Of a stretch of DNA of 64,000 nt, positions 6,278-36,739 are shown in pieces. Numbering within the stretch: position 1 is the first letter of the stretch; each line of letters begins with the position of its first letter. The notes beneath the pieces were generated by a model that was not told the DNA's origin, did no database searches, and was given only the letters and a program-made list of their open reading frames with translations. A program made the translations under genes and the position numbers. Origin of the DNA: Dehalococcoidia bacterium (lineage in GTDB: Bacteria; Chloroflexota; Dehalococcoidia; Lucifugimonadales; UBA2985); the NCBI GenBank assembly GCA_965263185.1, contig OZ253588.1:311611-375610 (forward strand), read 5' to 3'.

Positions 6278-9128
<2,851 letters not shown>

Positions 9129-9189: not shown

Positions 9190-9222
9190 TGTCAGCTAGG
9201 AGGCTCACGGAGCGGCCATTCA

Positions 9223-9256
9223 CGCTCGTGGTTAGCTTGTCGAACCATTTGAGCGG
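9223..9256 (+). repeat. single REP-like palindromic element (same family as 60376-60742)
   Basis: cgctcgtggttagcttgtcgaaccatttgagcgg, 31/34 identical to the unit core at 60378. Confidence 0.75.
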
Positions 9257-9296
9257 GAAGGACGGTCGGTTTAGCGTAAGCGGTCGCACTGCTGGT

Positions 9297-11636
9297 TCAC
9301 AAGGGGAACTCCATCAAAGATTTAGCAAACGGGATTGTAATGTTAAAAGTGTGCGGGTCTGAATCAGGAGCCAAAGCAACGATAATCATTCTCAAGGGAG
9401 CACGCGTCGCTCTCAATTCATCTCCCAGATCAGGCGGAACGGTGAAGGTAAATCGGAAACTTTCAGGAGCGTCAACCCATGAGTCCGCGAGAGTTGGGGC
9501 AGGGACGAGATTATAACGAGTTCTGATTTCATACACGTTGTCGTCAAACGACTCTGCGGTCTTCCAAACGGCAGTTAGCTTGAGCCCCGCAATGCTTACG
9601 CCTTCTTGAGGCTCTTCCCCGATGTACAGGACATCTTTAATGGAATAGCTGGGACCTAATTTCTCAAATCCAAAGCTGATCTTGTTATCGGCCCAAAGGA
9701 TTGGCGTTCCGGTTATGCGGAATTTCCCCGCTGAGATTCCTGAACCGGTCAAAGCATTGCCAAGCTCAGACACAGGCACATCAGAACCGAATATCTGTAT
9801 AGTTATTACTGGCGTTGGGCCGGGTGTCGGAGTGGACGTGGGCGTCGGGGTAGGTGTGGGTGCCAGCGTTGGGGGAGGAGTGGGTGTGGGGGTAGGGCTG
9901 GGTGTATATGTCGGTGTTGGAATGGGTGTGGGTATAGGAATAGGCGTTGGAGGAGGGGTAGGAGTATGAACGGGAATTGGAGGATGTGTTGGTATTAATA
10001 CAGGCACAGGAATGGGGTTGCTTGTTGCTGTTGGGGTTGGCAGAAGCGTTGGAACAGATGTAGGAATGGATGTTGGAGGGGTTAGAGCCTGCCCGGAACC
10101 GGGAGTAGGACTTGGAACAGGCTGAGAGCTTTGAGCAGGTCCATCTGAATTGGCGTATCCTAAGACTCCTATAACACCACCAACGCCAATAATAGATACA
10201 ATCAGTCCCACGATTGCCCATCTCAGCCCGCGGGCTTCAGTTTCAACTCTAGGCCCGTTGGCTTCAGTTTCAACTCTAGGCCCGTTGGCTTCAGTTTCAA
10301 CTCTAGGCCCATTGGCTTCAGTTTCAACTCTAGGCCCGTTGGCTTCAGTTTCAACTCTAGGCCCGTTGGCTTCAGTTTCAACTCTAGGCCCGTTGGCTTC
10401 AGTTTCAACTCTAGGCCCGTTGGCTTCAGCTTCAACTCTAGGCCCATTGGCTTCAGATTCAACTCTAGGCCGCACTAGAAATGTTACATACAGGTCGCCG
10501 GTTGAGCCTCCGTCAATTCCCGCATCGCCTGCTGCTGCAAGACGCATCGGAGTTCCGTCCTGTGTTCCAGGCGGAATCGTTATCTTCAACTTTCGATGCA
10601 GCCGCTCTCGACCTGAACTGTCACATTGAGGGCAGGAGCCTATCAGGAATTCTCCAACGCCGTTACACAGAGTACATCCCGCGCCGTTGCAATGGCTGCA
10701 CTTAACCGTGTGCCTCTTTGATCCACTGCATCTACTGCAAATCCCCAGCGGATATACGTCAACCTCCTTCTCTGCTCCAAACCTTGCTTCTTCAAAGGAC
10801 ACGCTAAGGGGGATCCGCAGGTCACCCCCGTTCTGAGGAGTCCTAATAGCGCCAGCGCCTCTGGAAGAGGCGTCGGCTGAGATCCTGGTATTTCCACCAG
10901 GAGGGTTACGGCGGTCGTACTGGGCGCGCTTCTGCGGGTCTTTGAGTGCGGCGTTTATCTCCAGAAGCTGCGCCGCACAGTCGCAAGCGGGGTCGCTGAG
11001 AATCGAGAGCTTGAGGATGAGGCGAGGCGGGGTTTCTTGAGATACCTTGTAGAACTCCCAGGTATCGCCGTTGGTCAGACAGGCGTACTCGGCGCTTTTC
11101 CTGCGGTTAGCGTACTTGAGCGCCTGGTCTCGGTGCTCGTCGTTCAGGTCCTGCCTCATACGCTTCGCCTCGATAAACGCGATGGGCTGCCCCCGCTGGC
11201 CCTGCGGGTGGAGGGCGTAGTCGACCCTTTGAGGTCTGTATCCGAACCCCAGGCTGTATTCCGTCGTGACGAGCTCTGGGTTGGCGGGATCCCAACCGAG
11301 GGCTTTGAGCAGTGGATCAATGAGCGCGTTGCGAGTGCGAGTCTCGTTCGCACTGATGGCGGCGCGGGCGCGCCCGATGTTCTCTTGAAGCTTTTTGATG
11401 ACGCTTACGAGATTGTCTACGTCAGAATTATCACACGTGGAGTGGGATTTCTCTTGCGCTTTCTTTTCACACTCCGAGCAGTGGGGGGCGCTTGCGGGCT
11501 TGTACACGACGTCGCATCCTCGGCACTTGTTAATACTACGTGTCCGCTGGGCCTCCCAGTGCAGACTACACAGATAGTGACCTCGCTGTATTTCCTTGGA
11601 GCAGGACTGTTCTCTGCAGGTGTTCGGTGTCGTCAT
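9297..11636 (-). CDS. chimeric membrane-anchored protein: Zn finger + HsdR-N-like PD-(D/E)xK nuclease + DnaJ Zn finger/CTD + tandem repeat + TM + Pro/Thr linker + C-terminal domain
   Basis: NE..TR..LIDPLL.ALGWD, RVDYAL, IEAK, QALKYA, LTNGDTW; LKDPQKRAQYDR; GDLRIPLSVSFEEA, four CxxC(xGxG) motifs, IPPG..DG...RL...GD....GDLYV; hydrophobic WAIVGLIVSIIGVGGVIGVLGY; (PT)n run. Confidence 0.85.
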   Translation of the reverse strand: MTTPNTCREQSCSKEIQRGHYLCSLHWEAQRTRSINKCRGCDVVYKPASAPHCSECEKKAQEKSHSTCDNSDVDNLVSVIKKLQENIGRARAAISANETRTRNALIDPLLKALGWDPANPELVTTEYSLGFGYRPQRVDYALHPQGQRGQPIAFIEAKRMRQDLNDEHRDQALKYANRRKSAEYACLTNGDTWEFYKVSQETPPRLILKLSILSDPACDCAAQLLEINAALKDPQKRAQYDRRNPPGGNTRISADASSRGAGAIRTPQNGGDLRIPLSVSFEEARFGAEKEVDVYPLGICSRCSGSKRHTVKCSHCNGAGCTLCNGVGEFLIGSCPQCDSSGRERLHRKLKITIPPGTQDGTPMRLAAAGDAGIDGGSTGDLYVTFLVRPRVESEANGPRVEAEANGPRVETEANGPRVETEANGPRVETEANGPRVETEANGPRVETEANGPRVETEANGPRVETEARGLRWAIVGLIVSIIGVGGVIGVLGYANSDGPAQSSQPVPSPTPGSGQALTPPTSIPTSVPTLLPTPTATSNPIPVPVLIPTHPPIPVHTPTPPPTPIPIPTPIPTPTYTPSPTPTPTPPPTLAPTPTPTPTSTPTPGPTPVITIQIFGSDVPVSELGNALTGSGISAGKFRITGTPILWADNKISFGFEKLGPSYSIKDVLYIGEEPQEGVSIAGLKLTAVWKTAESFDDNVYEIRTRYNLVPAPTLADSWVDAPESFRFTFTVPPDLGDELRATRAPLRMIIVALAPDSDPHTFNITIPFAKSLMEFPL
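10233..10471 (-). repeat. 27-bp coding tandem repeat, about 8.8 copies (RVETEANGP)
   Basis: unit ggcttcagtttcaactctaggcccgtt repeated almost perfectly. Confidence 0.95.
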
Positions 11637-11676
11637 AGCAGTCCGCGTTTGTAGTGAGAGTCAGGCATATGGGCGA

Positions 11677-11870
11677 GGTCTATCCCCGCGTGTGCGGGGG
11701 AACCTCGTAGACGTCGTCGCGGTAGCGGATTCTCATCGGTCTATCCCCGCGTGTGCAGGGGAACCCTTGGGCAGTAGCATAGCAGTCGAGATATCGGGAG
11801 TCTATCCCCGCGTGTGTGGGGGAACCCTCTTGCCGTTCTTTGTGGCTCTACCCTAATGGGTCTATCCCCG
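11677..11870 (-). CRISPR. orphan type I-E-like CRISPR mini-array: 3 full 28-bp repeats, 1 truncated repeat, 3 spacers (33, 33, 32 bp)
   Basis: repeats at 11677-11704, 11738-11765, 11799-11826 and partial 11859-11870; minus-strand consensus GGTTCCCCCGCACACGCGGGGATAGACC resembles the E. coli I-E repeat with a CCCCGC/GCGGGG stem; 60-61 bp period; spacers unique. Confidence 0.92.
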
Positions 11871-12090
11871 GGCTGGCCAGGGCCAGCGGCCTTACCCGCT
11901 ATCGGTGATGCTGCGGGTTCACATCGTCCAGGTATGCTACAATCTGAGCGACACTGGGATGGAAGACCTGTTGTATGAGGCGGAGTCGGTGCGGCGGTTC
12001 GTAGGGTTACGACTATCGGAGCCGATACCCGATGAGAGTACGATACTGCACTTCCGCCACCTGCTGGAAGAACATCAGCTGGGTCAGGTT
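11862..12090 (+). pseudogene. IS5-family transposase N-terminal fragment
   Basis: YPRAGQGQRPYPLSVMLRVHIVQVCYNLSD..MEDLLYE..SVRRFVGL...IPDESTILHFRHLLE; no DDE domain or inverted repeats left. Confidence 0.85.
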
Positions 12091-12148
12091 CACCCTCGAA
12101 GCTATGCCAGCCGCAATTATAGCACGGCGCGTACAAATCCAGGCCACT

Positions 12149-12177
12149 TTGCCCAGCCGTAGCTGCCTTGGTAGAAT
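12149..12177 (+). promoter_or_regulatory. sigma70-type promoter of the GT-C gene
   Basis: TTGCCC-N17-TAGAAT with extended TG; GTG start only 10 bp downstream (near leaderless). Confidence 0.5.
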
Positions 12178-12186
12178 AGCTTCATA

Positions 12187-15100
12187 GTGGAACATCCCAA
12201 CCCCAGCGATACCCCTACCCTCAACCCGCGCAAGTTGACCCTCGAGGCGCGCCGCCTGGCCGTTGTCTTCGCGCCCGCCCTCATCCTTGTTCTGGCCCTT
12301 GCCCTGCGGCTCTACGGCATAAATTGGGACCAAGGCGGCCTATTCCACCCCGACGAGCGGGCCATCCTGTTTCACGTCAACGACATGAGTTGGCCCCCAC
12401 TCTCCGACCTGGGCGTCCTCCTGGACGTGGACGAAAGCCCCCTCAACCCGCGTTGGTTCCCATACGGCAGCCTTCCCATGTACGCGGTGAAGGCCGCTCA
12501 GTCGCTTCTCTCCCCCATCGTCGACCTGGACTTTCACGGCCTGAGCTACCTGGGCAGGACACTCTCCGCCCTTGCCGACGTGGGCACAGTGCTGATGGTA
12601 TTCCTCCTTGCGTCCCGGCTCTACGGGCGCAGGGTGGGAATACTGGCCTCCCTGTTCGCCGCCATCGCGGTGATACACATTCAACTGAGCCACTTCTACA
12701 CCGTGGACACGTACCTGACATTCTTCATAGTCGCCTCCGTTTACTTCATGGTACGACTGATGCAAGACGGGCGGCCGAGGGACTCCGCCCTGGCCGGAGT
12801 CTTCATCGGGCTGGCGTTGGCCTCCAAGGTAAGCGTTGCGCCCCTGTTCCTGGCCTTCGTGCTGGCCCACGCCATCTACGCATTCTCAGGCCCCGGGGAG
12901 AGGCTCGCCCTGGCAAAGCCGTCCCGCCCCGCTCTCGCCAAGGTTGTCCGCAGCCTATTGCTGGGAGGCGCGGCCTGCCTGCTGGTCTTCTTCATCGCCA
13001 CGCCATACGCCTTCCTGGACTGGTCAAGGCCCACGCCCTGCGAGGTCCCCTACCCTTTCCTGGAGTTCCTCGACCGGAACTACTACGCCTGCGACCTGGG
13101 AGGCGAGTTCGCAATGGCGCGCGGCATATCGGGGCGACCGTACACCCAACAGTACATCGACACCGCGCCCTACTGGTACCACATCCGGCAGCTGGCCCTG
13201 TTCGGTCTGGGGCTTCCCCTAGGCATAGCCGCCTGGGCTTCCGTCCTGTTCACGGTCGCCCTGGCAGCAGCCCGCCGCCGCAAGGGCGACCTGCTGCTCC
13301 TGGCCTGGGTACTCCCCTACTTTCTGCTGACGGGCTACGTGGAGGTGAAGTTCCTGCGGTACATGCTGCCCCTGACCCCATTCCTGCTCATCATGGGGTC
13401 TCGTATGCTCCTCTGGGCGCACGACCGGGTATCGGAGCGGAGCATCCGGCATCTCCCACTGGCGCGTTGGGGCATTGGGTTCGTGATCGCAGCCACGGCG
13501 TTCTACAGCCTCGCCTTCGTCTCCATATACAGCCAGCCTCACACGGCGATGAGGGCGTCCGAGTGGATCAACGAGAACATCGCCAGAGGCTCCGTGATAC
13601 TCATGGAGCACTGGGAGGAGGGGCTGCCGAACACGCACAGCTACGTCAGAGGCTGCCGCGGCGTTCCGGACGACGCCAGGTCCTGCATGAAGATGTACGA
13701 CTCCGACAACGTGACGTACTACGGCGGCAAGGACAAGATGACGGTGGTGGCGGAGCAGCTTGCCGGGGCCGACTACCTGGTCTTCTTCAGCAACCGCCTC
13801 TACGGGAGCATCCCCCGGCTGCCGGAGAAGTACCCCCAGAGTGGCGAGTACTACCGCAGGCTCTTTGCCGGGGAGTTGGGGTACCGGCTGGAGCATTGGG
13901 AGACCGCCTACCCCCGGCTCATGGGAATCGCCTTCACGGACGATACCTTCACCCGTCCCGGCCTGCCGACGCTCGGAGAGCTGGGGCCGTTTCGACCGGC
14001 GCCCTTCACTGTAGACCTGGGCTACGCCGATGAGAGCTTCAGCGCCTACGACCACCCCAAGATCCTGATATTCAAGAACCTGGACCGCCTGAGCGCCTCT
14101 GAGATACTCCGGCTCCTCACGGAGGACCCACCGCAAGCGACCGAGGGCAAGAGCCTGCTGATGTCGGAGGCGACACTTACGGCCCAGCGCGAGGGCGGGA
14201 CCTGGAGCGCCATATTCGACCCCGGCAGCCTGGCCAACCGCTTCCCGGTAGTCGTGTGGCTCCTGTGGGCGCAGGCGCTTGCCCTGCTCGCCCTGCCGCT
14301 GAGCCTGGCTGTGTTCAAGGCCCTGCCGGACCGGGGCTACCTGCTGGCCAAGCCCCTTGGCATCCTTGCGACGGCCTACGTGGCCTGGCTCTTTGCAAGC
14401 CTGCACTGGATGCCATTCTCCAGAGGCTCAGTCCTTCTCGCGGCGCTGCTGCTCGCGTCGGTCTCCGCAATGGTCGTATACACGCGACGGGTGGACATAG
14501 TCGCCTTCTTCAGAGAGAACCTCCGCCTGGTGGCAGTGGGAGAGGCCGTCTTCATGGCCTCCTTTGCCGTATTCCTGCTGCTGAGAGCGGCCAACCCGGA
14601 CCTCTGGCACCCCTACACCGGCGGCGAAAAGCCAATGGAGATGGCCTACCTCAACGCCATAGTTCGCTCAACCTACATGCCCCCCTACGACCCCTGGTTT
14701 GCGGGAGGGTACATCAACTACTACTACTTTGGGCAGTTCATAGTCGCAAGCCTGGTCAAGGTATCCGGAATAACGACCGAGGTGGCATTCAACCTGGCCG
14801 TTCCCCTGTTCTTCGCCCTCACGACTTCGGCGGCCTTCTCCCTGGCGTACAACCTGTCGGAAGGCGCGCGGCGCGGCATGGGCATGGCCGGAGGCCGGAC
14901 GTGGGCCATAGTGGCCGGGCTTGCCGGCGCGTTCTTTGTCGCAGTCATGGGGAACCTGGACGGCGTAATCCAGCTTGGGCAGGGTCTCGCCAGGGCGATG
15001 CTTCAAGGGCAGCCCTTTGGCGAGTTCGATTTCTGGCGCAGCAGTCGGCTCATACCGCCCGGCGACCCGTCCGGGTACGAGATTACCGAGTTCCCCTTCT

Positions 15101-16737
15101 TCACCTTCCTGTTCGCAGACCTGCACGCCCACATGATGGCCATGCCGTTTGCCCTGCTATCGCTTGGGCTGGCCCTCAACCTGGGCCTTCGCATCAAAGA
15201 AGGAGTGGGCATAGCCTCCAGAGTGGGCTGCCTGCTGGCCCTAGCGCTGGCAGTGGGGTCGTTGAGGGCAATCAACACCTGGGACTTCCCAACCTACCTG
15301 GCCTTCGGGGCGCTGGCCGTGCTGATTGGCGAGTACGCCGGCAGCTCCCGCCGTATCTCCGTTGCAATGGCGGCGCGCGTCGTACTCCAGGCGGCCTTCC
15401 TGTACTGGGCTACTACACTGCTGTTTGCGCCCTTCATAGACAACTACCGCTCCTTTGCCGATGGCGTGTTCCTCAGCAAGTGGCAGACGCCCCTATACGC
15501 CTACCTGGGTATACACAGCGTCTTCATATTCCTGGCGATAAGCTTCCTGGCTTACGCCGGCCGCAGCCACCTCCGGTCACTATTCAGACGCGTCGCCGGC
15601 CTGGCCGCGAGCGACGGAGCCAACGGGTACGCTGATGGCCCGGCCGCAAAGCCCGGCAAAGCGTTGAGGCTTGCGCTCGCCGTCGGCCTGCCACTGGCAG
15701 CCGTCGTCGCGCTTGCGCTGATCGGATACGCCACCGTCGCCTTCCTGTTGCTGCTGCTGGCCCCGACGGTCGCGCTGGGCGGGAGGTGGGCCGCGTCCGG
15801 GAAGGACACCTTTGGCGTCTTTGCCCTGGCTATGCTGGCAACCGCCCTGTCCATTGGGATCATGGTTGAGGTGGTGACCATCAAGGGGGACATAGCCCGT
15901 ATGAACACGGTGTTCAAGTTCTACCTTCAGGCCTGGGTACTGATGGGCGTAGCCTCGGCTTACCTCCTCTGGCGCCTGGGGCCTGTCGCGCTCCGCGGCG
16001 AGCCGACGAATCCCGCCATTCCCGCGGAATCTGTCATCCACTCCCCCACTCACGGCGAGCCTGTCGAGCCACATGAACCTCGTCAGGGCCGCCGCATGGG
16101 ACTCGGAAGGGCGCGCGTCCTGCGATGGACGTGGGCGGCGCTGCTGGCCTTCCTGCTAATCGGAAGCTCCGTGTACACCGTGGCCGGGACCCAAGACCGG
16201 CTGAGGGAAAGGTTCCAGCCCCTGCCCCTTACCCTGAACGGAATGGCCTACATGGAGAACGCCCGGTACTCCTTTGACCGCGGCCGGGGCAGCGAGGAAC
16301 TCAAGGATGAGTACGACGCCATTCGATGGCTCCGTGGAGACGCCATACAGGGTTCCCCTGTGGTACTGGAGGGACAGGGAGAGCTTTACCGGAGCCTCCA
16401 CGGCCGGGTGTCCATCTACACCGGCCTTCCCACGGTCCTGGGCTGGGACAACCACCAGTCGCAGCAGCGTGGCTACGGGCCAGTGATAGGCGACCGCGTT
16501 AGAGACATCCGCCGCATATACTCCACCGAGAGGGTGGAGGAGGCCATGCGGTTGCTTGGCGAGTACCGCGTTGAGTACGTATACATAGGAGAAATCGAGC
16601 GCCACTACTACCCTGAGCGCGGGTTGGACAAGTTCTCCCGCATCCCGGGCGCAGAGCTGGCGTACTCCAACCCCACGGTGGAGATATACCGAGTCGCGTC
16701 GACTTCCATGCGTCTTGAGACTTCAGGTGGCCCATGA
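12187..16737 (+). CDS. tandem GT-C glycosyltransferase: PMT/GT39-like domain fused to DUF2298 (Chlor_Arch_YYY) domain
   Basis: FHPDER, FPYGSLP, HFYTVD; NPDLWHP..GGEKPME, PPYDPWFAGGYINYYYFGQ, ITEFPFFTFLFADLHAH, RMNTVFKFY, TGLPTVLGW; many TM helices. Confidence 0.85.
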   Translation: MEHPNPSDTPTLNPRKLTLEARRLAVVFAPALILVLALALRLYGINWDQGGLFHPDERAILFHVNDMSWPPLSDLGVLLDVDESPLNPRWFPYGSLPMYAVKAAQSLLSPIVDLDFHGLSYLGRTLSALADVGTVLMVFLLASRLYGRRVGILASLFAAIAVIHIQLSHFYTVDTYLTFFIVASVYFMVRLMQDGRPRDSALAGVFIGLALASKVSVAPLFLAFVLAHAIYAFSGPGERLALAKPSRPALAKVVRSLLLGGAACLLVFFIATPYAFLDWSRPTPCEVPYPFLEFLDRNYYACDLGGEFAMARGISGRPYTQQYIDTAPYWYHIRQLALFGLGLPLGIAAWASVLFTVALAAARRRKGDLLLLAWVLPYFLLTGYVEVKFLRYMLPLTPFLLIMGSRMLLWAHDRVSERSIRHLPLARWGIGFVIAATAFYSLAFVSIYSQPHTAMRASEWINENIARGSVILMEHWEEGLPNTHSYVRGCRGVPDDARSCMKMYDSDNVTYYGGKDKMTVVAEQLAGADYLVFFSNRLYGSIPRLPEKYPQSGEYYRRLFAGELGYRLEHWETAYPRLMGIAFTDDTFTRPGLPTLGELGPFRPAPFTVDLGYADESFSAYDHPKILIFKNLDRLSASEILRLLTEDPPQATEGKSLLMSEATLTAQREGGTWSAIFDPGSLANRFPVVVWLLWAQALALLALPLSLAVFKALPDRGYLLAKPLGILATAYVAWLFASLHWMPFSRGSVLLAALLLASVSAMVVYTRRVDIVAFFRENLRLVAVGEAVFMASFAVFLLLRAANPDLWHPYTGGEKPMEMAYLNAIVRSTYMPPYDPWFAGGYINYYYFGQFIVASLVKVSGITTEVAFNLAVPLFFALTTSAAFSLAYNLSEGARRGMGMAGGRTWAIVAGLAGAFFVAVMGNLDGVIQLGQGLARAMLQGQPFGEFDFWRSSRLIPPGDPSGYEITEFPFFTFLFADLHAHMMAMPFALLSLGLALNLGLRIKEGVGIASRVGCLLALALAVGSLRAINTWDFPTYLAFGALAVLIGEYAGSSRRISVAMAARVVLQAAFLYWATTLLFAPFIDNYRSFADGVFLSKWQTPLYAYLGIHSVFIFLAISFLAYAGRSHLRSLFRRVAGLAASDGANGYADGPAAKPGKALRLALAVGLPLAAVVALALIGYATVAFLLLLLAPTVALGGRWAASGKDTFGVFALAMLATALSIGIMVEVVTIKGDIARMNTVFKFYLQAWVLMGVASAYLLWRLGPVALRGEPTNPAIPAESVIHSPTHGEPVEPHEPRQGRRMGLGRARVLRWTWAALLAFLLIGSSVYTVAGTQDRLRERFQPLPLTLNGMAYMENARYSFDRGRGSEELKDEYDAIRWLRGDAIQGSPVVLEGQGELYRSLHGRVSIYTGLPTVLGWDNHQSQQRGYGPVIGDRVRDIRRIYSTERVEEAMRLLGEYRVEYVYIGEIERHYYPERGLDKFSRIPGAELAYSNPTVEIYRVASTSMRLETSGGP

Positions 16738-27568: not shown

Positions 27569-29273
27569 CCCGAATCCACCGAAGGACACGGATGGGCGGC
27601 GTGAGGACCGGAGAAGGGGGATGAGAGAGCTACAGGGGAGATGGCCTGGGCTCGATTGGGGTAGATGGGAGGTCGGCGGAGGGACTTCAGTCACCGCACA
27701 GGCCCCCAATGGCCGTCTGCGGGAGCTGGGATGCGCGGGATGGCAAGAGAATAGGCAGCAGGGAACTCCCGCGGAGCTGGTTGGTGCGAGTTGGCGGGGA
27801 CGTTGGGTCAGTGGCGGAGGGCGCCGTCAGGCTGGGAGTGGAATGGCTCGCAGCCGGGCCAGGGCGCGACTGAACTGGGTATCCCAGGGCCAGCGCCGGG
27901 GAAGATGCAGGGTCAATCGGCGTGCCGAGCGAGTGAGCCGTCCGGCCAAGGCGAAGACCCGTCGTCTGAGGGTCTTGGTGGTCACGATCTGCTCACCCAG
28001 GCCGATGCGGGCTGTCCAGCGGGCCAGGTTGTGTGCCATCACCTGTACCGCCAGCCAGGCTCCGTTGGCGGCGAAGCGGCCGGACGGCATGTGGTTCAGT
28101 CCGACACCGTACTTGAGGTCGCGTATCGCATTCTCGATCTCGGCGTGACGGCGATGATCAGCCTCCAGTTCGAGCATCTCCCCATCGCGGTCGGTGATGA
28201 AGCCGTGATAGCTGTAGGTGGCGAAGAGGGCCAACTGGGAACCGGGCGTGGGTTTCACCCGCCGGACGATGAGCCGCACCGGCGCGGCGTCGGGCTCACT
28301 CTGGAAGGGGATATAGGTGGTCTCTGCCACATCGGCGGCGCCGTCCATCCAGTAGGGAATGGGAGTCCAGTCCTCTTCTGGTATGGCCTCGATGACATTG
28401 TGCAGGCTTTTGTGCTGGCGGATGGTGATGGAGAAGCGGACATCCATCTTGCGGCAGACGGATACCACGCTATGAGCGTAGAAGCCGCTGTCGGCCCGCA
28501 TCGTGAGTTGTCCCCTGGCCCCGGCGAAGCGCACCCGCCCCACCGTCTCACGCAGGAAGTGGGCGGCGCCGCGGGCGGTGTTGGCCCGGCCCTCGCGCAG
28601 CCGGGCCATCAGCACGTCTCCGGTTCCGGCGGCGACGGCCAGCAGCGGGTGATAGCCCCGCTGACCGGTGTAACCATGGTGGCGCGCCCCTTCCTTGGCC
28701 AGTCCATAGGTCTCGCAGATGGTGGAGTCCAGGTCGATGGTCAGGGGCCCGTCGCCGGGTCCGGCCCCGGCAGCCCAGGCCCGGGCCAGCAACTCCCGGC
28801 TAACCCGGTCCAGTTGGCGGACATGGCCCCACCTGAAGCTGCGCAGGAAGGCGCCCAGGGTGGAGGGAGCCTTAGCCGTGAAACCGAGAACGCGGGCGGT
28901 CCCGCCGGCGCGTAGCACATCGGCGTCGTCGATGCAGTCGCCACCGGCCAACGCGGAGGCCACCAGCGTCATCATCTTGTCACCGGTGTTGGCTCTGCCT
29001 TTTGCATGGCCCAGGTCCAGGTGCCGGTCAACCAGTTGGGGCAGGCCAAGGCGCAGGGCCAGGGTGGACGGAAGAATCAGCCCGGCATTGGCCACCAGGC
29101 GGTGATCATCGAAGGCGATGCGGATGCGGTCGGGTTGGTGGCGTGGTAGCATCTATTGGGTGCTCCTTTTCCGGGACTGGTTTGCTGTTACAAAACCATT
29201 ATCCCAGATTCAGAGGAGCACCCTTTGGCCACTTCAGGACGCTGACCCGACGCCCTCCTTCGGTGGATTCGGG
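27569..29273 (-). mobile_element. complete IS1380-family insertion sequence, 1705 bp
   Basis: perfect 18-bp terminal inverted repeats CCCGAATCCACCGAAGGA (27569-27586, 29256-29273); 5-bp target duplication ATTAG (27564-27568, 29274-29278). Confidence 0.93.
27827..29152 (-). CDS. IS1380-family DDE transposase
   Basis: IDLDST, GYHPL, LREGRANT, RADSGFY, HRRHAEIENAIRDLKYG, PSGRFAANGAW. Confidence 0.92.
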   Translation of the reverse strand: MLPRHQPDRIRIAFDDHRLVANAGLILPSTLALRLGLPQLVDRHLDLGHAKGRANTGDKMMTLVASALAGGDCIDDADVLRAGGTARVLGFTAKAPSTLGAFLRSFRWGHVRQLDRVSRELLARAWAAGAGPGDGPLTIDLDSTICETYGLAKEGARHHGYTGQRGYHPLLAVAAGTGDVLMARLREGRANTARGAAHFLRETVGRVRFAGARGQLTMRADSGFYAHSVVSVCRKMDVRFSITIRQHKSLHNVIEAIPEEDWTPIPYWMDGAADVAETTYIPFQSEPDAAPVRLIVRRVKPTPGSQLALFATYSYHGFITDRDGEMLELEADHRRHAEIENAIRDLKYGVGLNHMPSGRFAANGAWLAVQVMAHNLARWTARIGLGEQIVTTKTLRRRVFALAGRLTRSARRLTLHLPRRWPWDTQFSRALARLRAIPLPA

Positions 29274-29676
29274 ATTAGGCGGGACACTGATAGCGCTTCC
29301 CGCGCTGTCTGTCGCCGCCGAGCCGATAGCGCACGCGGGCGATCATGCCCTCGGCCCGGCCTTCGCGGCGACCATGCTGCCAACCGAACCCGCCGCCGAG
29401 CCAGTAACAAAACCGGAGCCATTCACGGAGCGTTACTCCTGGCTGCTTCCTGCAATAGTGGTACTTGCTACTGCGCTCATCGGAGCATTCATAGCGAGTA
29501 TTGTTCGCGAGATCCACAGGAGATTGCCTCCGCCCGACCCTCCAGATTAGCGCAGACCTCTTGAGCTCGCAGGACCAATTATCCCAACGCGCCCTACTTC
29601 AAAACCGCGCTCAGAATCTCTATATTCGATGACATTCGTTCGCACATGAGCATACTCTCCGTAGCTGGGGTCTAGC

Positions 29677-30051
29677 ATGAGCGCTCTGGAGGACGGAGTG
29701 AGTCAGAGCCGTGTAGTACCACCAGCGCGGCCGGACACCCGAATGCGGCGCAGGTCGGCAAAGTACTCCTCGACCGCCGTGGTCAGCTTTGCTGTGGTTG
29801 CAGACATAGCCATATTCTACGCCATAATCGAGCGTGACTGCATCCCCGTACAAGGCCCGTGTCACCCCGCTGGCATGGGACACGAAGACGATGAAAACGG
29901 ACAAGAAGGGCGCTACGATTGCAAACGCATCCCTTATTGGATAGACCGGCGGTTGACATGCTTCGCAAGACCTGAATATGATGCTAGCATCTCGTTTGGG
30001 TTGACCTTTGAGCCTGAACACTGCCAGTTTGGGAAATCCCGGATAAGGTAG
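29677..30051 (+). CDS. hypothetical protein (one hydrophobic segment, Cys-containing)
   Basis: 124-aa ORF filling an otherwise empty gap; no motif recognised. Confidence 0.3.
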   Translation: MSALEDGVSQSRVVPPARPDTRMRRRSAKYSSTAVVSFAVVADIAIFYAIIERDCIPVQGPCHPAGMGHEDDENGQEGRYDCKRIPYWIDRRLTCFARPEYDASISFGLTFEPEHCQFGKSRIR

Positions 30052-30090
30052 TCCCGCGCCTCCAGTGAGTCGACCGGGGGCCGAACAAAC

Positions 30091-32339
30091 GTGGAGATAC
30101 GCCACCTAGTGGATACCGTTGCCGCTCCGTTAGACATCCTGAAGTCGCGCTTTGGCTTTGACAGCTTCCGGGGTCTGCAGGAAGAGATCATCGCTAACGT
30201 GCTGGCCGGCCATGACAGCTTGGCGCTGATGCCCACGGGGGCGGGCAAGTCCCTCTGCTACCAGTTGCCTGCGCTGATATTCAAGGGGACCACCCTGGTG
30301 ATCTCCCCTTTGATCGCCCTCATGAAGGACCAGGTTGACGCCCTGAACGCCAACGGCATCCCTGCCCGGGCTATCAACAGCTCTCAACCGTCGTGGGAAA
30401 TCGAGCAGGCGCAGTCGGAGGCTCGCCAGGGACAGGTCAAGATGCTCTACGTAGCCCCGGAGCGGTTGGCCCTGCCCGGCTTCCGAAGCTTCCTCCATAG
30501 CCTGACCTGAGCCTCATCGCCATCGACGAGGCCCACTGCATCTCCGAGTGGGGCCACGAGTTTCGCCCCGACTACCGCAACCTGCTGCAGTTGCGACAGG
30601 AGTTCCCGGAAGTTCCCGTGATTGCCCTGACAGCAACTGCTACGGACCGGGTTCGAGAGGACATCATCAGCCAGCTTGGCCTGCATCGCGGCCAAGTCTT
30701 CCTCTCCAGCTTCGACCGTCCCAATCTCAGCTACTCCGTGCATCCCAAGTCCAATTCCCTGGCCTTGCTGATGTCCATGCTGCAAAAGCGCCGCGGACAG
30801 TCCGCCATAATCTACTGCTTCTCGCGTCGGGAGACTGAGGAGTTGGCCGACAGCCTGAACAAGCGCGGCTTCGAAGCGCTCCCCTACCACGCCGGACTTG
30901 ACGCCGAGACTCGCCGCAAGAACCAGGAGGACTTCGTACGGGACCGGGTCCCCATCATCGTGGCAACCATCGCCTTCGGCATGGGAATCGACAAGCCGGA
31001 CGTCCGCTTGGTAGTGCATAACAGCCTGCCCAGGTCCCTGGAAGGTTACTACCAGGAGACGGGCCGGGCAGGCCGGGATGGTCTGCCCAGCGAGTGCGTC
31101 CTCTTCTTCGCATACGGTGACAAGGCGCGGCAGGACTACTTTCTCAACCAGATTGAGAGCGCCGCCGAGCAACGCAACGCCCGCGAGAAACTAACTCAGA
31201 TGGTGGACTACGCCCAAACCCCCACCTGCCGGCGTCGCACCCTTCTGGAGTACTTCGGTGAGGAATGGACAGAAGAGAATTGCGGCGGTTGCGACGTATG
31301 CCTCCGCGAGGCGGATGACTTCGACGCCACCGAGGTCGCCTTGAAGATACTCTCAGCGGTAGTCCGCACCGGCGAGCGGTTCGGGGCGGTTCACGTGATC
31401 CAGGCACTCACCGGCAGCCGCGAGAAGCGCATCCTGGACCTTGGCCACGACCGTCTCAGCGTCTACGGCATAGTCAAAGACTTCCAGCGCTCCGAGCTGC
31501 GCGAAATCATCGGCCATCTCCGAGCGCGGGGCCTGCTGGCCCTCAACGAGGGTGAGTTTCCAACCTTGAAAGTCACCCCCAAGGGCCGAGAGTTCCTCCA
31601 GCATGGGGAGAAGCTGACCTTACCTCGACCGCAAACTCCCGAGGCGAGCGACGACCGCCGGCCCGGAAGTCGCCGCCCAAGTGGAGCGCCGGCGTTGGGA
31701 GAGTACGATGAGAAGCTGTTCGACGAGTTGCGCACGCTGCGCCGTCGTCTGGCCGATGCTCGCAACGTCCCGCCCTACGTAGTCTTCGGCGATGTGAGTC
31801 TGCGCCACATGGCCGCGGCAATCCCGCAGACCTTGGAGGAGTTCGGACGCATATCCGGCGTGGGTCAAGCTAAGTTGCAGCAGTACGGCGCTGAATTCCT
31901 GCAAGTCATCTGTGCCTACGCAGAGGCCAATGGCATCCCCGCAGTGACCTACGACTCACCAGTGGGCGAACGGCCTGCGCCGGACCCTCAAGAACGCGAT
32001 CGTGGTCATAGGCAGCGAGGACGGGGCGCCACCTTTGAGACTACCAGGAAACTCCTAGCCCAAGGGCTCACCGTCAGTCAAATTGCTGAGCAGCGGGGCC
32101 TCGCTGCCACCACAATCATCGGACACCTTGAGCGCATCAGCGACCAGGGCGAAATCCTCGACCTGACCCATCTCCTGCCCCCAAGCGAAAGGCTGGAGCA
32201 AATCGAGCTCGCCTTCCGCGCTTGCGGCAGCGCCCTATTGCGCCCCGCCTGGGAGTACCTTGGACCCGACTTCACCTACGACGAGCTGAGGCTGGCGCGG
32301 ATTCACCTGCGCCAGCAGGGGCGCCTGGAGGAGGAATGA
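30091..32339 (+). pseudogene. recQ: DNA helicase RecQ (helicase, RQC, HRDC, C-terminal HTH), frameshifted near 30505
   Basis: MPTGAGKSLCYQ, YVAPERL in one frame; IAIDEAHCISEWGHEFRP, ATIAFGMGIDK, YYQETGRAGRDG in the next; join needs one extra base (CTG [G]AC CTG). Confidence 0.9.
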
Positions 32340-32493
32340 TGTCTCGTGATGTCCGCGCACGCCTCAATGGGTGAGATGGGCCCGTTTCTTTGGACTGGAT
32401 CGATGCGGAACGAAGTGAGAGTCCCGCTGCTCCTACCAGTGATACCAAGACTGGCTGCTGTGGACACCTCTCTTAGTTGGACTCTCTCGCGGC

Positions 32494-32891
32494 TACCCAG
32501 AGGGGGAGATGGGACGGGGCTTCCCCCGCGTCCCAGGAATGGATTCCTGCTCAAAGGCAGGAATGACGGTGCAACCACGCCGTGCCCGCGCACGCGGGTA
32601 CCCAGAGGGGGGATATGGGGCGGGGCCTCTCCCGCGTCCCAGGGATGGATTCCTGCTCAAAGGCAGGAATGACGGTGGAACCACGCCGTGCCCGCGCACG
32701 CGGGTACCCAGAGGGGGGATATGGGGCCGGGCCTCTCCCGCGTCCCAGGGATGGATTCCTGCTCGGAGGCAGGATTGACGGTGGAACCACGTCGTGCCCG
32801 CGCACGCGGGTACCCAGAGGGGGGATATGGGGCGGGGCCTCTCCCGCGTCCCAGGGATGGATTCCTGCTCAAAGGCAGGAATGACGGTGGG
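32494..32891. repeat. 105-106-bp tandem palindromic repeat, about 3.7 copies
   Basis: TACCCAGAGGGG recurs at 32494, 32599, 32705, 32811; units carry attcctgc-tcaaag-gcaggaat and gtgcccgcg-ca-cgcgggtac hairpins. Confidence 0.92.
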
Positions 32892-32925
32892 AGGCTCCTA
32901 CCGCTCACGGCCCCTCTTCCGCTCG

Positions 32926-32977
32926 CCCCGCACCAAGTACGGGGCAGGCTTTGAGCTTGTCGAAGGGCGTGAGCGGG
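32926..32977 (-). repeat. REP-like element copy (family of 60376-60742)
   Basis: reverse complement cccgctcacgcccttcgacaagctcaaagcctgccccgtacttggtgcgggg matches the second half of the 119-bp unit. Confidence 0.75.
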
Positions 32978-33069
32978 AGGAGTGTGGCGCTCCAACCGAC
33001 GTTGGCATTGCCAACGTCTGTAGAGAACGCCGCTCCCTGTGGCCGCAACTGGCTCTCACCGGTGGAGCG

Positions 33070-33393
33070 CTACCGCATGGGAGAGTAGTCGGTGGGCCTC
33101 AGTATACGATTGGTTATTCTGGCGACCAGCGGCCCCTCTCGCTCCGTCTCGGCGAAGAGCTTCGCGCGCTCTTCATCCGCCCTGAAGGCGCTCCAGGCCC
33201 GCTCACGATGCGCCATATCGTCGAATGCAAGCATGTAAACGAGTGTGTTGCTGGTCCCCACATCCTCAGTCCAGAACCCCACGGTTTTAAGGCCGTGTTT
33301 CTCAAAGTACCCCATTGTGATGTTGGCAAATCTATGGTTCAGCACCTGTATCTTCCCAGGCATTGCCTCGTACGTCCGCATCTCGTAGATCAC
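33070..33393 (-). CDS. NIPSNAP family protein
   Basis: IYEMRTY...PGK, G...VGFW, R..AW.AF..D, L.PT.YSP. Confidence 0.9.
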   Translation of the reverse strand: MIYEMRTYEAMPGKIQVLNHRFANITMGYFEKHGLKTVGFWTEDVGTSNTLVYMLAFDDMAHRERAWSAFRADEERAKLFAETEREGPLVARITNRILRPTDYSPMR

Positions 33394-33471
33394 GTCAGCT
33401 CCTCTCTTGTCTTGTAGTAGATTCAGTCCAGGGCGCCCAACCCTCGTGGCGCCTGAGGCAGGGGCATCTCA

Positions 33472-34506
33472 TCACAGGAGCCTCCTCTGCTCTCTCAGGC
33501 CGAGCTTGGCCATAGCCGCCTCTCCTATCTTGCGTCCACCGGGTGTTCTGAGCACAAACCCGGTCTTCAACAGGAACGGCTCCACCACATCCACAAGGGT
33601 CTGCACCTCCTCGTTCACAGTGGCAGCCAGGGCGTCTATGCCAACCGGACCGCCGCGGTAGTTCTCTGCGATGGTGGTCAGATACAGCCTGTCGAGCCGG
33701 TCCAGCCCCAGTTCGTCCACGCCCTCTCTGGTCAAGGCGGTATCCGCCACCTCCCGGTTTATGAAACCCTGGCTCCTCACCTGGGCATAATCCCTCACCC
33801 GCCGCAGCAGTCGATTCGCCACCCTTGGCGTCCCCCTGGAACGGCTTGCGATCTCACTGGCGCCCTCCGGGTCTATGCTCACACCGAGGATTTCCGAAGA
33901 ACGCTTCACCACTTCGGTCAACTCCTCCGTCGAGTAGAAGTCCAGGTGGTAGACCATCCCGAAGCGGTCCCGAAGTGGTGGGGTGAGAAGTCCCGCCCTG
34001 GTAGTTGCTCCAATGAGGGTAAACCGCTTCAGCTGAAACGGAAGTGTCCTGGCATACGCTCCCTTTCCGGTAACAAAGTCCACCTGGAAGTCCTCCATAG
34101 CGGAGTAAAGGTACTCCTCCACCGTATGTGGCAGCCGGTGTATTTCGTCTATGAACAGGGCCTCCCCTTCGTTGAGGTTGGACAGGACACCCACAATATC
34201 CAGCGGCTTTTCCAGGGCCGGGCCGGAGGTGTGGACTATTTCGGCTCCCATCTCCCTGGCAATGATATGTGCCAGGGTGGTCTTCCCCAATCCGGGCGGC
34301 CCGTGAAACAGCACATGCTCCAAGGGCTCCCGTCGCTCTCTTGCGGCGGCTATGGCAATGCCGATGCTCTCCACCACCAGCGTCTGGCCCACGTACTCAG
34401 GGAGTGTGCGGGGACGCAGGTTCCATATCAGACCCTCTTCACGTCCCTGCTCCGCCTCTACCTGCGGTTCCGGGCCGTCTCCCTTTATGACGCGTTCTCT
34501 AGCCAT
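33472..34506 (-). CDS. ruvB: Holliday junction branch migration helicase RuvB
   Basis: GPPGLGKTTLA, FIDEIHRL, GATTRAG, RGTPRVANRLLRRVRD. Confidence 0.97.
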   Translation of the reverse strand: MARERVIKGDGPEPQVEAEQGREEGLIWNLRPRTLPEYVGQTLVVESIGIAIAAARERREPLEHVLFHGPPGLGKTTLAHIIAREMGAEIVHTSGPALEKPLDIVGVLSNLNEGEALFIDEIHRLPHTVEEYLYSAMEDFQVDFVTGKGAYARTLPFQLKRFTLIGATTRAGLLTPPLRDRFGMVYHLDFYSTEELTEVVKRSSEILGVSIDPEGASEIASRSRGTPRVANRLLRRVRDYAQVRSQGFINREVADTALTREGVDELGLDRLDRLYLTTIAENYRGGPVGIDALAATVNEEVQTLVDVVEPFLLKTGFVLRTPGGRKIGEAAMAKLGLREQRRLL

Positions 34507-35148
34507 CTATTCGCCCGACCCACGTTCCATCCTGAAGACCTCTCTCAGCAGCTCCTGGGGGTCCTTTGCATTGGATACAACCTTAGCCGCCTCCTCCACC
34601 TTCTGCCTGGCGTCCGCACGACGATGTCCCAGGTTCACCAGCACACTCACCACCTCTTCCTGAGCGTCCCCGCGCGCCGGAGCGGTGGGGACGGTGGCAT
34701 AGCCCTCGTCCCTGAGCAAGGCCCACTCAGCCACCTTGCCCCTCAGCGTGGCCACCATCTTGTCCGCAGTCCTCCGTCCTATTCCTGGCATCCTCACCAG
34801 CAGGGCGGTATCGCCATCCTCTATTGCTTTGGCGATGGTGGAAACGGAGAAAACCAGCGCACGCGCTGCGGTGCTGACCCCCACGTCCTCCACCTGAATG
34901 AGCTTCTCGAAGAAAGTGCGCTCGAACTCTTTCCGGAATCCCACCAGGACCGGCTTTGGCTGCCTCTCCGAGGCGTGGAAGTACACCTCCATCTCCACGT
35001 CATCGCCCTCGCTCTTTTCCTCTTCGTTCAGTGAGCGCATGACAAAGTAGGGCAGCAGAAGTTCATACCCAACGCCCCCGACGTCCAGGACAACGCGGGC
35101 CTCATCCTGGTACATACGCCGAATAGTGCCCTTGAGGTAGTTTATCAC
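34507..35148 (-). CDS. ruvA: Holliday junction branch migration protein RuvA
   Basis: MINYLKG, GGVGYE, HhH motifs (PGIGRRTA), between ruvC and ruvB. Confidence 0.92.
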   Translation of the reverse strand: MINYLKGTIRRMYQDEARVVLDVGGVGYELLLPYFVMRSLNEEEKSEGDDVEMEVYFHASERQPKPVLVGFRKEFERTFFEKLIQVEDVGVSTAARALVFSVSTIAKAIEDGDTALLVRMPGIGRRTADKMVATLRGKVAEWALLRDEGYATVPTAPARGDAQEEVVSVLVNLGHRRADARQKVEEAAKVVSNAKDPQELLREVFRMERGSGE

Positions 35149-35154
35149 TGCCTG

Positions 35155-35685
35155 TCACACCACCGCACGGGTCTTCAGGTTGCCCCGGACATTCGAGCCG
35201 AACGCGGACGCTCCGATCGTCTGCCAATGGCACAAAGCCAGAGCCAGGGCGTCTGCCACGTCGTTGGGCTCCGGGAGTCGCGGAAGGGAGAGCCGCGTCT
35301 GGACTGCCCTCTGGATCTGGGCCTTGCCGGCTCTACCGCTCCCCACCATGGAGTGCTTGACTTGGGTGGAAGCGTAGCTGAACAGGGGTGTGTCGCTCTG
35401 AGCCGCCACCAGGCAGGCCACGCCGCGAGCGTGACCCATGAGGACCGCCGTGCTGGGATGCGCATAGTGAGAGTAGACCTCTTCCAGGGCCATCGCGTCG
35501 GGAGGGTACTCGTCCACCACCTCGCGCAGGCCGTCGTAGAGGGTGGCCAATCTCTGCTCTATGGGCGTGGAGGAAGTCCCGCCCCGGATGACCCCCCCCT
35601 CCCTCAACCACACGTCACTTCCCAGGGCCTCTATCACCCCGTAACCCATTCGAAGAAGGCCGGGATCCACTCCAAGAAGGATCAT
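35155..35685 (-). CDS. ruvC: crossover junction endodeoxyribonuclease RuvC
   Basis: LGVDPG...GYG, ALEE, GHARGV, GSGRAGKAQI, DVADALALALCH. Confidence 0.94.
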   Translation of the reverse strand: MILLGVDPGLLRMGYGVIEALGSDVWLREGGVIRGGTSSTPIEQRLATLYDGLREVVDEYPPDAMALEEVYSHYAHPSTAVLMGHARGVACLVAAQSDTPLFSYASTQVKHSMVGSGRAGKAQIQRAVQTRLSLPRLPEPNDVADALALALCHWQTIGASAFGSNVRGNLKTRAVV

Positions 35686-35881
35686 CAACTCACCCCTTGC
35701 CGGCATCCTAATGACGCTCATTCTAGGGATCTTTCCCAGGGGGGTCAATGCACGGGGCGGAGCGGGTTAGCCGGAAAGCAGGCGCCCAGGCTTTCCGTTA
35801 TCCCAGGCTATGGCAGCCTCCCGAACCCGAGGCCAGTCCCTGCGCTCTCGATGTGTCAGGCGACGGGCCGCCCGGCCCCAT

Positions 35882-36739
35882 CTACGGCCTGACGGCGACT
35901 ATCTCCAGCCAGTTGCGCGTGATGAAGCTCACCTTCATCTCCTCGAACACCTGGGCCGCCCCCTTCTGAAGGGCCTCGCTGGCTTGCTGCAAGGGCACGC
36001 CCGGCATGACGCCGGTTATCCAGTCCTCGAACTGGCTTATGAGCACCCAACCCTCAAGGGGAACCTCGACGGTGTTGACGCGTTGCTCCTTGATCTCAAA
36101 GCCGCGCTCCTTGAGAAGCTGAGTGTACTGCTCCACGGTCAGATGCTGGCGGGCCTCCACCTTATTCGCCTTGACTGGCGACAGGCCGTACTCCGAGCGC
36201 AGAATACGCAGAGATCTGAACATCCACCGCCGATACCACTCCAAAGTCTCCGGGGGATGCCCACCCTCATAGAATGAGGTATTGAAGGCAAAGACCCCAC
36301 CGCTACGAAGTGTGGAGAAGACCTCGTCGGAAAGCCGGGACTTGTCGGGCACAAGGTGTATGGCATTGCAGAACACCACCGCGTCCACCCTCTCACGGAT
36401 TAGCTGCGATAGCTGCTCCGCCCGCCCCAGGACGAACTCCACCATAGCGTCCTTGGCGTTGCTCAGGTCTTCCTTTGCCTGCTTGAGCGCGAAGGTCGAG
36501 AGGTCTACGCCGATGACCAAGCTGTCCTTGGCTCCCTTCAGCTTCTGCAGAATGATCTTTGTCACGCCGCCGGTCCCACATGCCAGATCTACGACATGCT
36601 GGCCTGGGCGTACCTGGGAGAGCTCCACCAGGTCGGTGTTGATCTTCTGGTAGAATGGCGCGCTGGCAAAGGCGGCAAAGGAGAAGTCCTCACGCCCGCC
36701 CGCTTTGTCCTCGTTTTCTGACATGGTCGATTCCCCCAT
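35882..36739 (-). CDS. class I SAM-dependent methyltransferase
   Basis: VVDLACGTGG, GVDLS, GRAE motifs. Confidence 0.85.
   Translation of the reverse strand: MGESTMSENEDKAGGREDFSFAAFASAPFYQKINTDLVELSQVRPGQHVVDLACGTGGVTKIILQKLKGAKDSLVIGVDLSTFALKQAKEDLSNAKDAMVEFVLGRAEQLSQLIRERVDAVVFCNAIHLVPDKSRLSDEVFSTLRSGGVFAFNTSFYEGGHPPETLEWYRRWMFRSLRILRSEYGLSPVKANKVEARQHLTVEQYTQLLKERGFEIKEQRVNTVEVPLEGWVLISQFEDWITGVMPGVPLQQASEALQKGAAQVFEEMKVSFITRNWLEIVAVRP

Follow-up and report, generated by a model that had tools for sequence, protein, structure and literature searches.

In a 64-kb stretch of a Dehalococcoidia bacterium genome (64,000 nucleotides (nt) of contig OZ253588.1, hereafter the window), a short CRISPR array lies directly upstream of, and in the same orientation as, the gene for a chimeric, nuclease-like protein that we denote P0001. 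We read this array as the eroded trailer-end relic of a deleted type I-E locus, left in a rearrangement scar and unrelated to the neighboring gene, and we assign this reading a probability of roughly 80%. Degenerate orphan CRISPR remnants are known, and the stub is an ordinary case of one, not a new array-plus-nuclease system. The initial annotation of this stretch, made from the letters alone, had offered two options: (a) an array and a non-Cas nuclease that form one module controlled in trans, or (b) a deleted I-E locus of which the trailer end and an ancillary defense gene were left behind. The array and the gene are arranged as follows, in window coordinates.

11858..11870, minus strand: repeat 4 stub, a 29-nt repeat cut down to its last 13 nt at the 3' end, CGGGGATAGACCC; the leader-proximal end of the remnant
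11827..11857, minus strand: spacer 3, 31 nt
11798..11826, minus strand: repeat 3, two substitutions (G10A, which breaks the stem, and C28T)
11766..11797, minus strand: spacer 2, 32 nt, containing a weak promoter-like -10
11737..11765, minus strand: repeat 2, two substitutions (C9T, which gives a G.U pair, and C29G)
11705..11736, minus strand: spacer 1, 32 nt, the oldest spacer
11676..11704, minus strand: repeat 1, the terminal (trailer-end) repeat, one substitution (C29T)
11637..11675, minus strand: remnant of the 5' untranslated region of the P0001 gene; homology to the upstream region of the related locus L037 begins at the repeat boundary
9297..11636, minus strand: chimeric gene P0001, 779 amino acids (aa), with its ATG at 11636; the longest minus-strand open reading frame (ORF) there

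Three full copies of a 28-nt unit, GGTCTATCCCCGCGTGTGCGGGGGAACC on the plus strand, occupy 11677-11704, 11738-11765, and 11799-11826, with zero, one, and two mismatches to that unit, respectively, and with start-to-start distances of 61 nt and 61 nt. With the same 28-nt unit, the repeat finder reported a fourth copy as a 12-nt stub, GGTCTATCCCCG, at 11859-11870 (plus strand). Read on the minus strand, the repeats are 29 nt long and partly palindromic, with a 61-nt period and spacers of 32, 32, and 31 nt; in this 29-nt reading, the repeat remnants span 11676-11870 and the stub measures 13 nt. A pattern search allowing up to three mismatches found only the three full copies in the window, and when the window was dinucleotide-shuffled 100 times, three or more repeat matches never occurred (mean 0.00). 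Compared with the 29-nt consensus, repeat 1, which adjoins the gene, carries the single substitution listed above, and repeats 2 and 3 carry two each. One substitution in each of the latter falls in the hairpin stem: C9T leaves repeat 2 with a G.U pair and a preserved hairpin (-13.2 vs -15.4 kcal/mol), whereas G10A breaks the stem of repeat 3, which folds at -8.3 kcal/mol, a value matched by 23 of 200 shuffles. Stable hairpins are therefore retained in repeat 1 (-15.4 kcal/mol) and repeat 2 (-13.2 kcal/mol).

The type and sense of the array were assigned by comparison with plasmid-borne relatives. A blastn search against a plasmid collection returned 24 records with matches of 61-nt periodicity, two of which were examined (L040 and L041). 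On plasmid p5 of Azospirillum argentinense (NZ_CP032326.1), the matching array starts about 50 nt after cas2e, downstream of an operon ending in cas1e-cas2e (L041), and cas3, cse1, cas7e, cas5e, cas6e, cas1e, and cas2e are annotated on the array's strand. On the Pontibrevibacter nitratireducens plasmid (NZ_CP049816.1), the matching array lies between cas6e and cas1e/cas2e in the same orientation, interrupting the operon between cas6e and cas1e (L040). Both plasmid repeats are identical to the window consensus, GGTTCCCCCGCACACGCGGGGATAGACCC, at 27 of 29 positions and have the 61-nt period in common with it. Because these arrays adjoin annotated I-E cas operons and are co-oriented with them, we take the stub to be of type I-E origin, with its sense on the minus strand of the window; this puts the side of the leader and the cas genes at the high coordinates, where repeat 4 is cut. 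Like the window array, the plasmid arrays combine a 29-nt repeat, the same hairpin, and a 3' end reading ...GGGGATAGACCC, and their repeat farthest from the cas genes is degenerate as well. Unlike it, they adjoin cas3, cas7e, cas5e, cas6e, cas1e, and cas2e; the 64 kb of the window contain neither a cas gene nor a leader, the array is down to 3.4 repeats, and an insertion sequence (IS) fragment lies at the expected cas side. At gathering thresholds, Rfam reported no CRISPR family in the window; the only match of a permissive search, CRISPR-DR28, scored 16.2 bits where 35 are required, and it was not used for typing.

The side on which the cas genes would be expected contains the following features.

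11871..12090, plus strand: internal fragment of an IS5-family transposase, about 73 codons (DUF772, 1.1e-16)
12116..12124, minus strand: extended -10-like motif TGcTATAAT, detected by the relaxed scan only; candidate source of read-through into the IS piece, the stub, and the gene
12149..12177, plus strand: promoter-like site TTGCCC-17-TAGAAT with TG, serving the DUF2298/PMT_2 gene (12187-16737); right edge of the scar

No Cas Pfam family was detected among the 62 window ORFs, and tblastn of 15 I-E Cas proteins, drawn from the two plasmid operons, against the six frames of the window gave no match. Likewise, no leader with a promoter was found before the first remaining repeat; the cut repeat abuts the IS5 transposase fragment instead. 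The sequence of repeat 4 ends at 11870/11871, directly at this fragment, which the initial annotation had missed. The fragment corresponds to codons ~50-118 of a 315-codon reference transposase, is readable in a plus-strand frame from 11872, and is 62-64% identical to annotated IS5 family transposases, but it has no start, DDE catalytic domain, or IS ends. The IS5 similarity ends at about 12090 and is followed by the promoter-like site that serves the divergent DUF2298/PMT_2 gene. Since the IS piece lacks both ends, there must be at least two deletion junctions (11870/11871 and ~12090), the first of which thus removed the leader-side part of the array. Base composition also sets the segment apart: the flanking genes, enolase/GAPDH on the left and DUF2298 on the right, have a guanine-cytosine (GC) content of 0.62-0.70, whereas it is 0.50-0.58 over 9200-11000 and 0.56-0.61 from there to 12200. 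The chimeric gene, the array stub, and the IS5 piece (9.2-12.2 kb) together form a lower-GC patch, a rearrangement scar amid housekeeping genes.

We propose the following sequence of events. The locus would once have extended to the right of the stub, to higher coordinates, with its leader, newer spacers, and cas operon, all of which would then have been deleted. Deletions associated with an IS5 element would have removed the leader side, and the IS5 element itself would later have been truncated, leaving behind the old trailer end to mutate freely. The adjacent gene would have arisen through recombination between paralogues and would be no partner of the array; if it is expressed, read-through from upstream would make co-transcription an accident of the scar. 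With three spacers, three mutated repeats, and no leader, the stub is most likely inert as immunity. Such decay has precedents. In the portions cited here, studies of Escherichia and Salmonella describe CRISPR/cas loci that decay by partial or total deletion into short cas-less arrays (Touchon and Rocha 2010, PMC2886076), and decay by deletion is described in PMC8616872 as well. The window stub resembles these Escherichia and Salmonella arrays as far as they are described there, as short arrays left after deletion.

If the array and the gene formed a unit, homologues of the gene might be expected beside arrays elsewhere, as the initial annotation had envisaged. A profile search of genome contigs with a 10-sequence alignment of the P0001 N-terminal module retrieved 39 homologue loci, 33-65% identical to the query, of which 34 are titled Dehalococcoidia, Chloroflexi, or Chloroflexota. 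The window's repeat core occurs in none of the 39. A detector of spaced repeats with at least three copies, which does find the window's array, flagged six loci, all of them whole-unit tandem repeats (53, 66, 59, 60/72, and 90-nt units and P/T-coding DNA). A two-copy scan of the 1.5 kb upstream flagged two loci, one with a tandem duplication of 62 nt and the other with a coding periodicity of 33 nt. Similarly, tblastn with Cas probes, all of type I-E, matched none of the 39 loci (~10 kb). At these 39 loci, homologues of P0001 are not linked to I-E cas genes or to arrays, within a test that would miss mini-arrays whose repeats differ at more than 2 of 22 nt.

Two of these loci contain repetitive elements of another kind. 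A GC-rich hairpin motif, CATTCCCGCG-n-AAGCGGGAATC, lies upstream of the homologue in L037, which is a Dehalococcoidia metagenome-assembled genome (MAG), at 9600-9810, and the same hairpin forms a 59-nt tandem triplet in a Poribacteria MAG (L024, 17383-17559). In L037, an element resembling GAATGGTCTGAA(C/T)AAG is also present in inverted copies. Both the hairpin and the GAATGGTCTGAA elements look like repetitive extragenic palindromic (REP) elements or miniature inverted-repeat transposable elements (MITEs) that are common to different phyla.

The closest of the homologue loci, L037 (65% identity over residues 1-228), allowed us to place the junction between array and gene. The gap between the last repeat and the ATG at 11636 is 40 nt, and L037 aligns with the window upstream of the gene exactly to the end of repeat 1. 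The break in homology is directly visible in the alignment: identity is 56/77 over the first codons and 31/40 in the gap (11637-11676), and 23/60 in the next 60 nt, which lie in the array. The 500-nt upstream region of L037 contains a single promoter-like site, TTGTCG-17-GATAAT with TG (0.2 expected), which ends at the very base where homology with the window begins. A strict scan of the window detected no sigma-70-like minus-strand site from the ATG at 11636 to 12300, gap and array included. Beyond the extended -10-like motif listed above, the relaxed scan reported one further minus-strand site, which lies within the array.

-10 TG-n-TATGCT at 11784-11776, minus strand: weak promoter-like site TAGACT-17-TATGCT in the array, with TAGACT from the end of repeat 3; relaxed scan only

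By this comparison, the terminal repeat probably occupies the place of the native promoter, and the P0001 gene appears to have lost its own. Any expression of the gene must therefore come from upstream, and it may be co-transcribed with the array. The 3' end of the terminal repeat, GATAGACC, was considered as a stand-in for the GATAAT -10 of L037 and rejected: its final T is absent and no site was detected. Much of what the initial annotation had described is borne out by these analyses. The I-E-like repeats do stop 40 bp from the nuclease ATG (11676/11677 vs 11636), and consensus comparison and folding recovered the independent repeat substitutions, two of them (C9T, G10A) in the stem. The minus-strand sense, first argued by analogy to E. 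coli, agrees with the plasmid arrays beside I-E cas genes; the lack of a recognizable cas gene in 64 kb holds in both Pfam (62 ORFs) and tblastn; and the strict sigma-70-like scan likewise found no clear promoter in the 40-bp gap.

This geometry is also an argument for treating the array and the gene as a one-transcript unit, in which Cas6e cleavage or Cascade binding in trans would control expression of the HsdR-N-like protein, much as in CreTA. Array and gene point the same way, and the 40 nt that separate the array from the ATG contain no promoter; with the terminal repeat on the native promoter place, expression would have to traverse the array; a Cas6e cut at the base of repeat 1 would give a 5' end within about 10 nt of the start predicted for L037; and the chimeric ORF is intact and occurs in a second sequence (P0021). 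We nevertheless consider such a unit very unlikely. Arrays and I-E cas genes are absent from all 39 homologue loci, and the closest homologue stands by itself behind a promoter-like site of its own, in a context of pheT, two ORFs without a family, and a catalase-peroxidase gene, lying between pheT and the latter. The leader side of the array is a deletion scar, and the gene matches no defense family beyond weak restriction-nuclease domains (best 25.5 bits). Known systems of this type, so far as the cited accounts describe them, also differ from the stub. CreTA modules are placed inside or beside cas operons, with nt 1-5 and 7-11 as the seed (PMC8501985). Regulatory mini-arrays have one pseudo-spacer, the seed of which pairs with the controlled promoter beside a protospacer-adjacent motif (PMC8501985, PMC9458426, bioRxiv 10.1101/2024.10.29.618823). 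CreTA controls a small toxic RNA in these accounts, and the targets of other mini-arrays are cas genes or a toxic protein. The stub resembles CreTA and CRISPR RNA (crRNA)-like mini-arrays, as they are described there, in having few degenerate repeats outside a normal array and near a gene. Unlike them, it has no adjoining cas operon and no seed pairing in the 64 kb: each of its three seeds (nt 1-5, 7-11) matches only itself on both strands. It is likewise highly improbable that the stub was co-opted as the gene's 5' leader, with transcription from TGcTATAAT (12124-12116) and Cas6e from elsewhere cutting repeat 1. If it were, the mRNA 5' end would lie within ~10 nt of the ancestral start, and expression of a membrane-anchored PD-(D/E)xK protein would depend on CRISPR processing.

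These results separate the two options of the initial annotation. Option (a), the array/nuclease module controlled in trans, finds no support: homologues are not array-linked, the closest relative carries its own promoter-like site, and CreA-type seed complementarity to the spacers is lacking throughout the window. Option (b) holds in its first half: the cut repeat 4, the IS5 piece, the missing cas genes and leader, and the mutated repeats agree with the trailer end of a deleted I-E locus. Its second half, an ancillary defense gene left behind, finds no support, with 0 of 39 homologue loci showing an array or I-E cas genes and the gene belonging to a family fused to J domains, membrane helices, and P/T linkers.

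The three spacers are mutually unrelated, intact, and unique. None matched the phage collection, and the alignments found in the plasmid collection were CRISPR arrays with a 61-nt period, none confined to a spacer. Partial spacer matches to promoters, which the initial annotation had thought worth looking for, were absent from the window, both with up to 8 substitutions and with the seed at nt 1-5 and 7-11; in the rest of the window, no spacer matched with up to 8 substitutions, and a single 12-mer match, at 37605, compares with ~0.5 such matches expected by chance by our own estimate. We also tested for anti-cas spacers. In the text cited, E. coli lineages without the second cas subtype are described as conserving short cas-less arrays with spacers that target those cas genes (PMC2886076), and the anti-cas spacer idea for E. 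coli orphan arrays is raised in PMC8616872. Unlike the E. coli arrays as described there, the window stub has no spacer matching the two I-E cas operons compared, or any other of the 41 loci that include them.

The state of the spacers bears on whether the stub might be an orphan array used in trans: a promoter upstream would drive its transcription, a complete I-E system with the same repeat elsewhere in the genome would supply Cas6e to cut it, the three old spacers would immunize, and the gene would be irrelevant. Hairpins remain stable in two of the three repeats, the spacers are unique and undamaged, the correct strand has a perfect extended -10 motif 250 nt before the stub, on its upstream side, and orphan arrays served by Cas proteins from elsewhere are documented, in the account cited, in PMC8616872. 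We regard this use as unlikely. The array has no leader, its repeat 4 is cut at a deletion junction, every repeat is mutated, and the 64 kb contain no cas gene; moreover, no phage protospacer was found, and no plasmid alignment was confined to a spacer.

The gene itself has a composite make-up. P0001 starts with a Cys-rich, zinc-ribbon-like extension (residues 1-68), followed by an HsdR-N-like PD-(D/E)xK module (residues ~69-225, with D139, E156, and K158), the tail of a J domain, consisting of its last helix only (residues 226-240), and a DnaJ zinc finger with C-terminal domain (residues 262-393). About nine copies of a 9-aa repeat (residues ~391-468), one membrane helix, and a P/T-rich linker then lead to a C-terminal domain of ~170 aa (residues 605-779; 9297-9830) that has no Pfam family. 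For this last domain, the ESM Atlas gave values of 0.77-0.83 with Chloroflexota clusters, some of them DUF4352, which lie below the real-vs-shuffled level and serve as a lead only.

HSDR_N (1.3e-10) and HSDR_N_2 cover residues 98-201 in Pfam, and both profiles (PF04313/PF13588) score above their cut-offs (41.9 vs 25.1 bits; 28.0 vs 25). D139, E156, and K158, which are taken to be the catalytic residues given what is generally known of this fold, do not vary among 10 relatives; in an alignment of 25 sequences, K158 never varies, and conservation of D139 and E156 is 90% or higher. A predicted model of residues 1-260 has a mean predicted local distance difference test (pLDDT) score of 71.5 with a confident core at 70-247. 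Its best fold match is 3h1t, an HsdR fragment (E 7.1e-4, but a template modeling (TM) score of only 0.32), followed by DrdV and BpuSI. A profile search of PDB sequences with the 10-sequence module alignment gave no match. Taken together, the sequence and the model make "nuclease-like" a reasonable label for the module. P0001 resembles the HsdR-N nuclease domains found in restriction enzymes of types I and IIG in its Pfam scores above cut-offs and its D...E-x-K pattern, and its best fold matches, at low TM scores, point tentatively the same way. Unlike in those enzymes, the module has no helicase, methylase, or specificity partner, and modules of the P0001 type are fused to J domains, membrane helices, P/T linkers, ankyrin repeats, and propellers. 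PADLOC returned only weak restriction-nuclease-domain matches for P0001 among its defense-system families (best 25.5 bits), and no toxin family matched the product in Pfam, NCBIfam, or PADLOC searches.

The module family is large, with 4304 representatives at E up to 1e-3 and 859 at up to 1e-10. P0001 belongs to a family that occurs mostly in Dehalococcoidia MAGs, where the HsdR-N-like module is joined in varied combinations to J domains, multi-pass membrane regions, P/T-rich linkers, ankyrin repeats, beta-propellers, and CAP domains (relatives P0004, P0005, P0011, P0015, P0022, and P0023).

The DnaJ-like part is supported by DnaJ_C over residues 274-391 (1.2e-11; 45.4 vs 26.6 bits; profile positions 2-75 of 152) and by four CxxC-type zinc-finger motifs, two of which fit CxxCxGxG exactly. 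NCBIfam DnaJ models match at 1e-24 but far under their cut-offs. The HPD motif is associated with the J domain. No J domain (PF00226) was matched in P0001 at E up to 0.1, and its alignment with P0003, which carries PF00226, begins at the last J-domain helix. P0001 is therefore like DnaJ/Hsp40 type I co-chaperones in its CxxC zinc-finger motifs and part of the C-terminal domain. Unlike them, it lacks the J domain except for the last helix and continues into a membrane helix and an extracytoplasmic part.

Comparison with P0022 and P0003 points to the origin of the chimera. Residues 5-224 of P0001 are 64% identical to P0022, which consists of the Cys-rich extension and the HsdR-N-like module followed by membrane helices. 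Residues 226-409 and 610-779 are 84% and 89% identical, respectively, to P0003, which has a full J domain, zinc finger, membrane helix, P/T linker, and the C-terminal domain as in P0001. These alignments show P0001 to be a recombinant that joins two types of paralogue, both common in Dehalococcoidia MAGs: a zinc-ribbon/HsdR-N-like protein and a DnaJ-like membrane protein. The join of module and DnaJ-like part recurs in P0021 (85% identical, diverging mid-module), and the chimera is therefore not private to this assembly. P0021 in turn looks like a mosaic of two paralogues, which suggests frequent gene conversion.

A 27-nt tandem repeat of ~10 units at 10221-10470 encodes the 9-aa units (ETEANGPRV) before the membrane helix and produces six spurious promoter-like matches in the promoter scan. 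The expansion of the 9-aa repeat is probably recent, because the close relative P0003 has only 2 units against ~9 in P0001. The ATG at 11636 is backed by P0098 and P0022, both of which start at the equivalent place with a motif in common; L037 has a TTG at the equivalent codon, and the database gene call (P0002, 736 aa) starts at V44 of P0001.

CRISPR repeats, IS copies, and paralogues are classic sites of mis-assembly, and all three occur here within 3 kb, which raises the question of whether the junctions of the repeat, of the IS piece, or of the chimeric gene are mis-joins that arose when repeated sequences were assembled. We find an assembly artefact scarcely credible. The exact 736-aa protein occurs on 2 contigs (the longest 2.5 Mb), and the domain junction recurs in the independent, diverged P0021. 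Furthermore, the junctions lie inside repeat and IS copies and not at full copies, a pattern for which assemblers are not typically responsible, and the window holds no second copy of the repeat or the IS to recombine with.

Several observations weigh against the decayed-locus reading. Recognition of repeats 1 and 2 by Cas6e is conceivable, because both still fold well. The ORF is intact over 779 codons and the chimeric join is also seen in the diverged P0021, so the gene has persisted and is presumably expressed from somewhere. Motifs from the relaxed scan place a perfect extended -10, TGcTATAAT, and the weaker in-array site on the right strand. The 39-locus sample is distant (33-65% identity), was defined by the N-terminal module only, and does not include the source genome. 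The cas searches cover the 64-kb window, and a cognate I-E system elsewhere in the genome may process the stub. Finally, the order of events is reconstructed from one genome.

The rest of the window yielded further observations. At another IS-affected spot (27830-32336), recQ appears split into two ORFs, 30091-30507 (DEAD) and 30591-32336 (Helicase_C, RQC, HRDC), and may be frameshifted or a pseudogene. Just upstream of it lie two family-less ORFs and a transposase gene of the IS4-type DDE class, which is intact (27830-29152, minus strand), and five consecutive ORFs of 108, 207, 84, 362, and 221 aa without a Pfam match at E up to 1e-5 follow downstream (32346-35892, plus strand). The longest enolase ORF (6418-8061, plus strand) has ~125 extra N-terminal residues before Enolase_N, and its true start is probably downstream. 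A BrnA-family antitoxin gene is located at 43651-44034 (plus strand, 3.7e-26), a thiamine pyrophosphate (TPP) riboswitch (60.4 bits) at 59854-59967 (minus strand) upstream of thiG/thiE genes, and the one tRNA gene at 63504-63575 (minus strand).

Overall, the locus provides an example of CRISPR-cas decay, in which a cas-less, leaderless stub persists beside an IS scar. It also calls for caution, since co-orientation and a short gap do not count as evidence of a module when the array is truncated and relatives of the gene are not array-linked. The large family with an HsdR-N-like module fused to J domains, membrane helices, and extracytoplasmic domains may interest researchers of Dehalococcoidia in its own right, although it is not a CRISPR finding.

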